Shown: in pieces, positions 21,154-21,876 of the stretch
Position numbering within the stretch: the first letter of the stretch is position 1
Layout of the letters: each line of letters opens with the position of its first letter
From: Alphaproteobacteria bacterium
Lineage (GTDB): Bacteria; Pseudomonadota; Alphaproteobacteria; CALKHQ01
Direction: 5' to 3'
Assembly: GCA_050329975.1 (NCBI GenBank)
Contig: JBHJOG010000207.1
Coordinates: 7,211 to 71,210, forward strand
DNA: 64,000 nt
The notes under the pieces: model-generated
What the model was told of the DNA's origin: nothing
Database searches by the model: none
The model's input: only the letters and a program-made list of their open reading frames with translations
Translations under genes and position numbers: made by a program

Positions 21154-21876
21154 TTACCAGAGGCTCTTCAGCTTCTCCCAGCCGTCCGCGGAGGTTATGA
21201 TGGCCACTGCGGTGGCCATGGTTTCGCTGTCCCGGTTGCCGGTGAAACTCCAGGACCCGGAAAGCAGGAACACGGCGCCCATCGCTGTTGTGCAGCCCCC
21301 GCGCGCCGACTCGACGACCTCCCGGCTCACCGTCTCCTTCGGCCGCGTCTCCCCGGCGGCCGCGGAGTACAGTTTCTTGCCGAGCGAATGAAATCCCTTG
21401 AGTATCGCCGAAGCCCCCAATGTGCCCACGCCGATGGCGACCAGCGCGACGTTGCGCTCTTTCTTGTCGATGATGTAGCCGATGTTCTTCGCGCACTTTC
21501 GACACGCGCAGCTATAGTTGACGTCCCTGCTTCCGCCGCGCAGGGCATCCGCCTTGAGGTCGTGCAGACTGAATATCTTGCCGGCCTGGGTGGCGACCAC
21601 GGCCGCACCGATCCAGGGCGCCAGCGCCGCACCGATAGGGGCAATGGCGGTGCCCACGGCCACCGAACCCACGGTGAACCCGACCTGCAGTCCGCTGGAA
21701 ACACCCGCGGCCGCGGCGCCATGCGAAACCCCGGCCTGAACTGCGGCAGGCGCCAGCTTGGCGGTCAGGGATGCCAGGACGCTCTTGAACTTGCCCCAGG
21801 CCCCGTGTGTGTACTGACCCTGCTTGAGGATCAGGCCGCTGAGCTGGTTGAGTTGTTCCGGTGATGGCAGGCCCAT
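21154..21876 (-). CDS. Hypothetical protein with long Gly/Ala-rich hydrophobic (glycine-zipper-like) segment and Cys cluster
   Basis: GC3 is high in this frame. The protein has GAAAAGVSSGLQVGFTVGSVAVGTAIAPIGAALAPWIGAAVVATQAG, CACRKCAKNIGY and a second hydrophobic stretch VALVAIGVGTLGASAIL. Local GC is lower. No recognisable family. Confidence 0.45.
   Translation of the reverse strand: MGLPSPEQLNQLSGLILKQGQYTHGAWGKFKSVLASLTAKLAPAAVQAGVSHGAAAAGVSSGLQVGFTVGSVAVGTAIAPIGAALAPWIGAAVVATQAGKIFSLHDLKADALRGGSRDVNYSCACRKCAKNIGYIIDKKERNVALVAIGVGTLGASAILKGFHSLGKKLYSAAAGETRPKETVSREVVESARGGCTTAMGAVFLLSGSWSFTGNRDSETMATAVAIITSADGWEKLKSLW

Follow-up and report, generated by a model that had tools for sequence, protein, structure and literature searches.

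A rare family of predicted helical proteins with four invariant cysteines is associated with type VI secretion genes

The 64-kb stretch of alphaproteobacterial DNA analysed here (the window; contig JBHJOG010000207.1) carries on its minus strand a coding sequence for a 240-residue protein (21154..21876), which the list of open reading frames (ORFs), the homologues and an AlphaFold model assign to an uncharacterised family, predicted to be all-helical and bearing four invariant cysteines. We call this family X and number its loci L001 and onwards. Family X is rare, patchily distributed and previously undescribed. Comparison of gene neighbourhoods strongly suggests an association, at the level of the family, between X and type VI secretion systems (T6SS), and as far as the literature we searched shows, this association is new. 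The window copy stands alone, in an interval of variable content within a chromosomal backbone that is conserved, and the evidence that ties this copy to the T6SS is indirect. Among the roles that we have weighed, we tentatively favour X as a leaderless T6SS cargo that would insert into target membranes.

Linkage of family X to type VI secretion genes

Of about 36 non-redundant loci whose flanks were usable, about 9-11 have T6SS genes within 10 kb of X. Even with a generous background rate of 2 %, the probability of finding at least nine such loci among 36 is 3e-8. In a neighbour-joining tree the T6SS-linked members fall into seven or more clades, one of which is the clade of the window gene.

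The closest linkages take several forms. In L019, an orphan hcp (T6SS_HCP, 7e-40) is followed after a gap of 81 bp by X, with moaA on the opposite strand; the Hcp protein is a plain one of 158 residues, without a toxin extension. In L025, X is embedded in a run of genes on one strand, in the order tssF, tssG, clpV, X, ppkA, vgrG, DUF6931, PAAR, fha, tssK and tssL. In L051, X lies 68 bp beyond a series consisting of clpV, a binding-protein-like (TagR-like) gene, fha, tssJ, tssK, tssL and tssM, and in Aquabacter sp. CN5-332 (L005/L020) it follows tssC, tagJ, tssE, tssF, tssG and a methyltransferase gene.

Other loci show T6SS genes at a greater distance. The tssJKLM genes are 4.4 kb from X in L009/L010, and tssF and tssG lie ~7 kb upstream of X in L012 and L015/L038. 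In this arrangement, seen in Mesorhizobium sp. 1B3 and a Rhizobiaceae metagenome-assembled genome (MAG), a methyltransferase gene and a kinase gene accompany tssF and tssG, with a PP2C phosphatase gene directly before X, and in L012 X is found beside a Ser/Thr kinase gene and two PP2C (SpoIIE) phosphatase genes. A tssM match is located on the same short contig as X in L061, and PAAR genes are found 2-3 kb from distant relatives of X in L063/L064 and L072. In Azospirillum, the T6SS is 10 kb (A. oryzae) or 24 kb (A. lipoferum 4B) from the X homologue, which is too loose to count as strong linkage.

Two features of these clusters are worth recording in their own right. A methyltransferase gene of ~515 codons (Methyltransf_11/25 and MethyTransf_Reg) is located directly after tssG in L005 (6296-7855), L012 (1380-2921) and L015 (1138-2898). 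The copies in these three alphaproteobacterial T6SS clusters are 42-43 % identical, and the gene may be a lineage-specific T6SS accessory gene. In L025, the DUF6931 gene (9864-10451, E 1e-47) lies between vgrG and PAAR, a position typical of adaptors and chaperones.

Sequence features and distribution of the family

The window ORF begins with MGLPSP, the N-terminus that is conserved across the full-length homologues, and the start codon is therefore correct. The GC content at third codon positions (GC3) is 0.82, so the ORF is clearly coding, as an earlier reading of this gene from its sequence only had concluded. Scans with Pfam, NCBIfam, PADLOC and PHROGs gave no match (the only hit, HCV_NS4a with an E value of 1.6, is noise), and neither sequence nor profile searches of the PDB returned one. 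A word-indexed search returned 54 homologues at E below 1e-15, with 35-82 % identity over the full length, all of which are labelled 'hypothetical' and none of which has a Pfam domain. An exhaustive profile search of 1.84 billion representatives returned 102 X clusters of 42-437 residues. The sequence-only reading was thus right that the protein matches no recognisable curated family and wrong in calling it an orphan; strong homology to a housekeeping membrane protein, the outcome that it had set against itself, did not appear.

Full-length members have ~230-260 residues. When 10 longer relatives were scanned with Pfam, FYVE was the sole domain and no secretion-related domain was found; all X relatives are small, with no fusion to another secretion domain. 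X is carried by 19 of 185,579 species-level genomes, and the carriers include Mesorhizobium, a Rhizobiaceae MAG, Acetobacteraceae MAGs, Methylobacterium, Aquabacter, Azorhizobium, Rhodospirillales and Rubritepida. Tandem duplicates occur in two unrelated lineages (L006, 8001-9604; L028, 2159-4411), and the two copies in L006 share similar upstream regions.

The family is defined by two alignments, A2 and A4, and its markers are the four cysteines, W88, YIIDKKE, G154 and the C-terminal DGW...W. In an alignment of 67 sequences, extending to ~20 % identity, only C123, C125, C128, C195 and A198 are invariant. Further conserved blocks are M-x-LP-x-P-x2-L-x2-L, APIGAALAPW, L-x-DL, YIIDKKE, G154, RPKE, LLSG-x-W and DGW...W. 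The window protein has all the invariant columns and is a member of the family.

From the N-terminus onwards (all coordinates on the minus strand), the protein starts with the motif MGLPSPxQLxxLS (residues 1-14, 21835..21876), in which M1, L3, P4, P6, L9 and L12 are at least 90 % conserved in A2. Sequence hydropathy shows no hydrophobic or signal-like region at the N-terminus that could be a signal peptide. Residues 41-99 (21580..21756) form an uncharged, Gly/Ala-rich stretch of 59 residues with a hydropathy peak of 1.85 at residues 77-95. This stretch is a long small-xxx-small run, and it contains a true GxxxGxxxGxxxG at residues 58-70, in line with the glycine-zipper-like stretch of the sequence-only reading; within the family, however, this zipper is the least conserved and most indel-prone part. 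The conserved hydrophobic block is instead APIGAALAPWIGAA (residues 79-92). W88 is invariant, and P80, G82 and P87 are nearly so.

The C-x-C-x2-C motif (C123, C125 and C128; 21493..21510) is invariant in alignments A1, A2 and A4, down to ~20 % identity. It is followed by the YIIDKKERN block (residues 134-142, 21451..21477), in which Y134 and K138 are invariant and D137, K139 and E140 are at least 90 % conserved; distant relatives carry F/WIIDR(S/K)(D/E) in place of YIIDKKE. A second hydrophobic helix, which the sequence-only reading had also noticed as a hydrophobic segment, spans residues 143-162 (21391..21450), with an invariant G154 and a Kyte-Doolittle hydropathy of 1.75 over residues 143-161. 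It may be either a transmembrane helix or a buried core helix. The two peptides quoted in that reading are present at residues 53-94 and 123-142. The fourth invariant cysteine, C195 (21292..21294), is part of a GC-x2-A motif in which C195 and A198 are invariant in A4. The protein ends with DGWEKLKSLW (residues 231-240, 21157..21186), where D231, G232, W233 and W240 are at least 90 % conserved.

Several known sequence signatures were considered and rejected. A zinc-binding anti-sigma factor (ZAS) needs HxxxCxxC and an ECF sigma gene; X has CxCxxC with a distant cysteine, and no sigma factor gene adjoins X in the loci examined. N-myristoylation does not fit, as G2 varies within the family and the spacing does not agree with it. 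The 'SG' and 'QG' positions that might mark a double-glycine leader are not conserved.

Predicted structure, metal site and topology

The AlphaFold model of X contains nine helices, with a mean predicted local distance difference test score (pLDDT) of 80.7 and a predicted template-modelling score (pTM) of 0.77. The pLDDT values are 87-91 for residues 1-40 and 97-98 for residues 181-200, and the sole low-confidence part, with pLDDT below 50, comprises residues 52-79. According to this model, X is predicted to be entirely alpha-helical, with two strongly hydrophobic helices. The second hydrophobic segment falls within model helices 128-151 and 155-174. No structural similarity to known pore-formers or solved structures was found, and a colicin-like pore-forming domain was rejected, as X does not show the ten-helix colicin fold.

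The four invariant cysteines probably form one putative structural metal site. We infer a Zn(Cys)4 site that would join the loop preceding helix 128-151 to the turn that leads into helix 196-205.

Five distant clusters of relatives (P0120, P0121, P0126, P0129 and P0138) contain a Pfam FYVE zinc finger, scoring 31-38 bits against a threshold of 27.8. The finger is an insertion that follows the second hydrophobic helix and precedes the GC-x2-A helix, and one FYVE-bearing relative comes, by its annotation, from a Planctomycetaceae MAG. When the L063 protein, which is of the FYVE-bearing type, was compared with the profile of family X, hhalign gave a probability of 97.3 % and an E value of 2e-11.

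A cysteine-rich zinc finger needs a reducing compartment, and therefore the two flanks of helix 143-162 are probably on one and the same side of any membrane. In the folded state, this speaks for a buried helix rather than one that permanently spans a membrane. Likewise, the CxCxxC loop and C195 are probably on the same side of any membrane. A four-span transmembrane topology was rejected by this inference, as it would place C195 and the FYVE insertion on the side of the membrane opposite to the CxCxxC loop. What the topology argument favours is a soluble bundle in which the hydrophobic helices are buried, or else anchoring solely by a hairpin formed by residues 41-99.

In L070 (6797-11182), from a Planctomycetaceae MAG, the FYVE-bearing relative has genes for an APH/EcKL-type kinase and an inositol monophosphatase within ~3 kb upstream, the nearest at ~1.3 kb. 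This neighbourhood is suggestive of a phosphoinositide-binding module in a bacterium.

Genomic neighbourhood in the window and its clade

In the window, X is separated from its neighbour genes by 60 bp and 134 bp. According to Pfam, tctC, tctB and tctA (17973-21093) come after X, followed by genes for a DUF7282 protein, an Mpo1-like protein, asd and a TPR protein. On the other side are the genes for a sugar-binding protein and a sugar ABC operon with an ATPase, a permease and a Peripla_BP_4-type binding protein (22011-26396), the FDH beta and alpha subunits (26683-31166), a ChpT-type histidine phosphotransferase (31630-32349) and a CheA-like hybrid kinase with Hpt, dimerisation, HATPase, CheW and receiver domains (32603-35338). 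The tctC ORF could start at 21093; a signal-peptide-like sequence, MLARLTAAFAALGMSAGAMAQ, begins at the ATG at 21015, which is probably the true start and is the coordinate used in the sequence-only reading.

The same backbone (CheA-like, ChpT, FDH ... X, tctCBA, DUF7282, Mpo1-like, asd and TPR) surrounds X in L001, L006/L007 and L008. The ChpT-type and CheA-like pair (31630-35338) adjoins the FDH genes in all four syntenic genomes. Compared with the window, the neighbouring proteins in the syntenic genomes are 57-88 % identical and X is 61-69 % identical. The shared position and the neighbour-like identity imply that X was inherited in place, and thus the sequence comparison points to vertical inheritance within the clade of the window. 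The sugar ABC operon with its second, divergent binding-protein gene (22011-26396) is absent from the same interval in L001, L006 and L008. It is therefore this operon, and not X, that represents a lineage-specific insertion between FDH and X.

The interval from FDH alpha to the Mpo1-like gene is a variable hotspot (window 17427-26683; L001 7987-10000; L006 7867-10659; L008 7066-13566). X is its only constant occupant, and the remaining contents differ in every genome. The L006 interval has two tandem X copies and a gene for a 284-residue Gly/Ala-rich protein, and the L008 interval has a lipoprotein-like ORF of 161 residues, X, tctCBA, the gene for the 284-residue protein and DUF7282. In L001, the gene directly after X (8996-9640) codes for a 214-residue protein that contains the motif HELIH and comes just short of the threshold for Peptidase_M91 (E 5.6e-5, 24 bits versus 25), the NleD-type effector protease family. 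The 284-residue protein (minus strand; L006 9668-10522, L008 11977-12831) has no Pfam domain, is 68 % identical between the two genomes and contains a Gly/Ala-rich hydrophobic stretch followed by cysteines; homology between it and X was rejected (hhalign probability 0.3 %).

Base composition and the upstream region

The sequence-only reading had described the gene and its flanks as lower in GC than their neighbours and took this as a hint of horizontal acquisition. The composition does not bear this out. The GC content of the gene is 0.654, whereas the 48 window genes average 0.676 (standard deviation 0.027); this gives the gene a z of -0.78 and puts it at rank 12 of the 48. GC3 and a codon adaptation index-like (CAI-like) measure are mildly low, both with z -1.71 and in second and third lowest place among the 48 genes, and are not outliers. 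The flank at 21094-21153 is GC-rich (0.77), and 21016-21153 taken as a whole has a GC content of 0.69. The only low flank is 21877-22010 (0.56, ~1.3 standard deviations under the intergenic mean of 0.657 with a standard deviation of 0.073), and it is common to X and the divergent ABC operon. A low-GC foreign island at X is ruled out by the z value of the gene and the GC-rich flank. Nor is X missing from the same site in relatives, as L001, L006 and L008 have it at the same backbone position, and no integrase or transposase was found among 10 nearby window genes scanned with Pfam. The intuition of a foreign gene or toxin behind the sequence-only reading thus loses its compositional basis, and what speaks for it is indirect: the rare and patchy family, the variable FDH-Mpo1 interval and the T6SS-linked relatives.

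A TT-N9-TTAAC element is found at 21927..21942 on the minus strand, 66 to 51 nt before the ATG of X. Elements of the form TT-N9-TTAA(C/G) occur 59-66 nt upstream of the start in six of 34 family upstream regions, compared with 0.2 on average and at most 2 in 1000 shuffling trials. The element-bearing loci are the window, L006 (both copies), L011, L031 and L032, some of which are non-syntenic. This recurrence suggests that the element may be a candidate regulator site. EcfG and sigma-54 promoter readings did not fit, and a CtrA-half-site-like reading is a guess. An Rfam scan of 20800-22200 returned no match. A scan for promoters and terminators near X found one promoter-like site, which belongs to the side of the ABC operon, and terminator-like hairpins inside the X coding sequence, which are on the wrong strand.

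Possible roles of X

The cargo reading is favoured because of the hcp-X module, the variable positions at the edges of T6SS clusters, the patchiness, the tandem duplications and the small size of X. The absent signal peptide and the small, unfused relatives are consistent with it. If X is a cargo, it would fold in the cytoplasm of the producer into a soluble bundle of helices that keeps the hydrophobic ones in its interior. It would then be loaded on the T6SS, by way of Hcp in loci where hcp precedes X, or else through the VgrG/PAAR spike. Once delivered, it would open, and the hydrophobic helices would insert into the target membrane. As there is no adjacent immunity gene, the target would probably not be sister cells; X may act on a foreign membrane, for instance a eukaryotic one, or in a way that does not kill.

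A number of observations weigh against a cargo role. In 26 loci, no plausible small same-strand ORF was found downstream of X that could be an adjacent, or a hidden, immunity gene, and antibacterial pore-forming effectors such as Ssp6/Sip6 do not typically lack one; there is no room even for a tiny ORF after X in the window, L019, L025 and L009. When the genes around X were clustered, the ubiquitous TctC family was the only neighbour conserved beyond one syntenic clade. X itself carries no MIX, FIX, PAAR or other delivery marker recognised by Pfam, and no VgrG/Rhs-type fusion was found among the 10 longer relatives scanned. In the window, tblastn with at least 14 T6SS proteins found no T6SS gene, and in about two thirds of the loci with usable flanks there is no T6SS gene within 10 kb of X. 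A structural match to known pore-formers is lacking, as described above. Finally, in the clade of the window, X is stable in position and diverges like its less constrained neighbours (61-69 % versus 57-88 %), and therefore resembles a resident cellular function more than a weapon with fast turnover.

X could instead be a non-secreted T6SS accessory protein or regulator, a reading that we consider rather unlikely. Here the hairpin of residues 41-99 would anchor X in the inner membrane and the zinc-bound domain would be cytoplasmic, where it would modulate T6SS assembly or the threonine-phosphorylation switch. Such a role would suit the copies that lie inside core T6SS operons by regulatory genes: between clpV and ppkA in L025, after tssM in an operon with fha and the TagR-like binding protein in L051, and beside the kinase and the two phosphatases in L012. 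The missing immunity gene is expected for a non-toxic component, and a cytoplasmic domain would agree with both the Cys4 site and the FYVE finger inserted in relatives. For a component, however, it is unusual that the position of X within T6SS clusters differs from lineage to lineage and that X is absent from most T6SS clusters. Many copies, including that of the window, stand alone far from T6SS genes, and the two-gene hcp-X module in L019 is a classic cargo arrangement.

A bolder version of the cargo reading, which we regard as doubtful, is that X represents a new T6SS-delivered class, a leaderless, zinc-stapled bundle aimed at foreign and possibly eukaryotic membranes. No immunity partner would be needed, because the target would be foreign, and in the Planctomycete relatives the FYVE finger would provide homing to membranes bearing phosphatidylinositol 3-phosphate (PI3P). 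An even less conventional alternative is that X would be a bacterial hairpin-anchored membrane-shaping protein.

It is unlikely that X is a resident zinc-binding membrane or membrane-associated protein without a T6SS role, active for instance in envelope or stress physiology, with the linkage to T6SS reflecting shared variable regions. The stable position in the FDH-Mpo1-asd backbone of four genomes and the neighbour-like divergence are what such a protein would show, and the majority of loci without a T6SS gene within 10 kb and the missing partner gene agree with it. The positionally conserved upstream element in the close subfamily suggests dedicated regulation. On the other hand, the T6SS linkage greatly exceeds what chance would give and turns up repeatedly, in clades and arrangements that differ, a presence in 19 of 185,579 species genomes is hard to square with a general cellular function, and the tandem duplications in L006 and L028 also argue against it.

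We think it quite improbable that X is an orphan membrane immunity protein, neutralising an incoming membrane-targeting T6SS toxin. The patchy spread, the many stand-alone copies, the tandem duplicates, the hydrophobic helices and the T6SS association would all be compatible with this, but no candidate cognate toxin lies beside X in any locus (L019 offers only the plain Hcp, and L025 only clpV and ppkA), and an immunity role would hardly account for the variants with a FYVE finger. A length of 230-260 residues, strong conservation and a Cys4 site are not typical of immunity proteins. The immunity-like protein named in the sequence-only reading, too, finds no support, as X has no partner gene.

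The bacteriocin suggested in the sequence-only reading, taken here as a horizontally acquired bacteriocin or glycine-zipper toxin with Cdz-like type I export, is largely refuted and hardly credible: it can call on the glycine-zipper-like stretch, an alphaproteobacterial host as for Caulobacter Cdz and the slightly low GC3 and CAI-like values, but X has 240 residues and no conserved double-glycine site, no type I exporter, immunity gene or other partner gene lies beside it in any locus (the ABC operon of the window is a sugar importer with periplasmic binding proteins), and there is no low-GC island and synteny is conserved within the clade.

T6SS cargo repertoires are poorly known outside model Gammaproteobacteria, especially in plant and soil Alphaproteobacteria such as Mesorhizobium, Azospirillum, Methylobacterium and Aquabacter. 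If it is linked to the T6SS as the neighbourhoods suggest, X, as a conserved family with a Cys4 site, a fold that would be new and no immunity partner, would add either an accessory component not known before or a type of effector whose targets are not kin bacteria. Isolates with T6SS-linked X copies exist and would serve as clean test systems. For annotation, the gain is that a 'hypothetical protein' becomes a member of a defined family with diagnostic residues, and that the apparent island signal is seen not to be compositional.

Comparison with known systems

The bacteriocins CdzC and CdzD of Caulobacter are proteins of 84-86 residues with leader peptides, a type I exporter (cdzAB) and an immunity gene (cdzI) (PMC5380434). 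Like X, Cdz is alphaproteobacterial and patchily distributed and has zipper segments of glycine and small hydrophobic residues. X differs in its length of 240 residues, its predicted Cys4 helical domain and the lack of a leader and of an exporter or immunity partner. The FYVE proteins (PF01363) share their finger with the distant Planctomycetaceae relatives of X; the window protein has no FYVE domain, and its four cysteines are a separate, family-wide feature. In concept, X as a cargo would resemble the colicin-type and Bcl-2-type domains, in which a soluble helical bundle of ~200 residues buries a membrane-inserting hydrophobic hairpin.

The closest parallels are found among T6SS effectors. 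Ssp6 of Serratia marcescens is soluble in the cytoplasm of the producer and acts on membranes after delivery, its gene overlaps the immunity gene sip6, and genes adjoining an orphan hcp have been inferred to encode Hcp-dependent cargo (PMC6889166). Ssp6 and Tse4 of Pseudomonas aeruginosa, which is named in the same literature, are comparable to X in several respects: they are helical proteins of ~170-250 residues without a signal peptide, they have hydrophobic segments or segments rich in small residues and often no recognisable domain, and genes of this type lie beside an orphan hcp or inside or at the edge of T6SS clusters. In contrast to them, X has four invariant cysteines, a Cys4 site for which those families are not known, and no adjacent immunity gene. 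X matches no curated family or solved structure, and it is by their descriptions that it is set apart from Ssp6 and Tse4. By analogy, although it fits no known family, X would work most like the small, Hcp-linked, membrane-targeting T6SS effectors.

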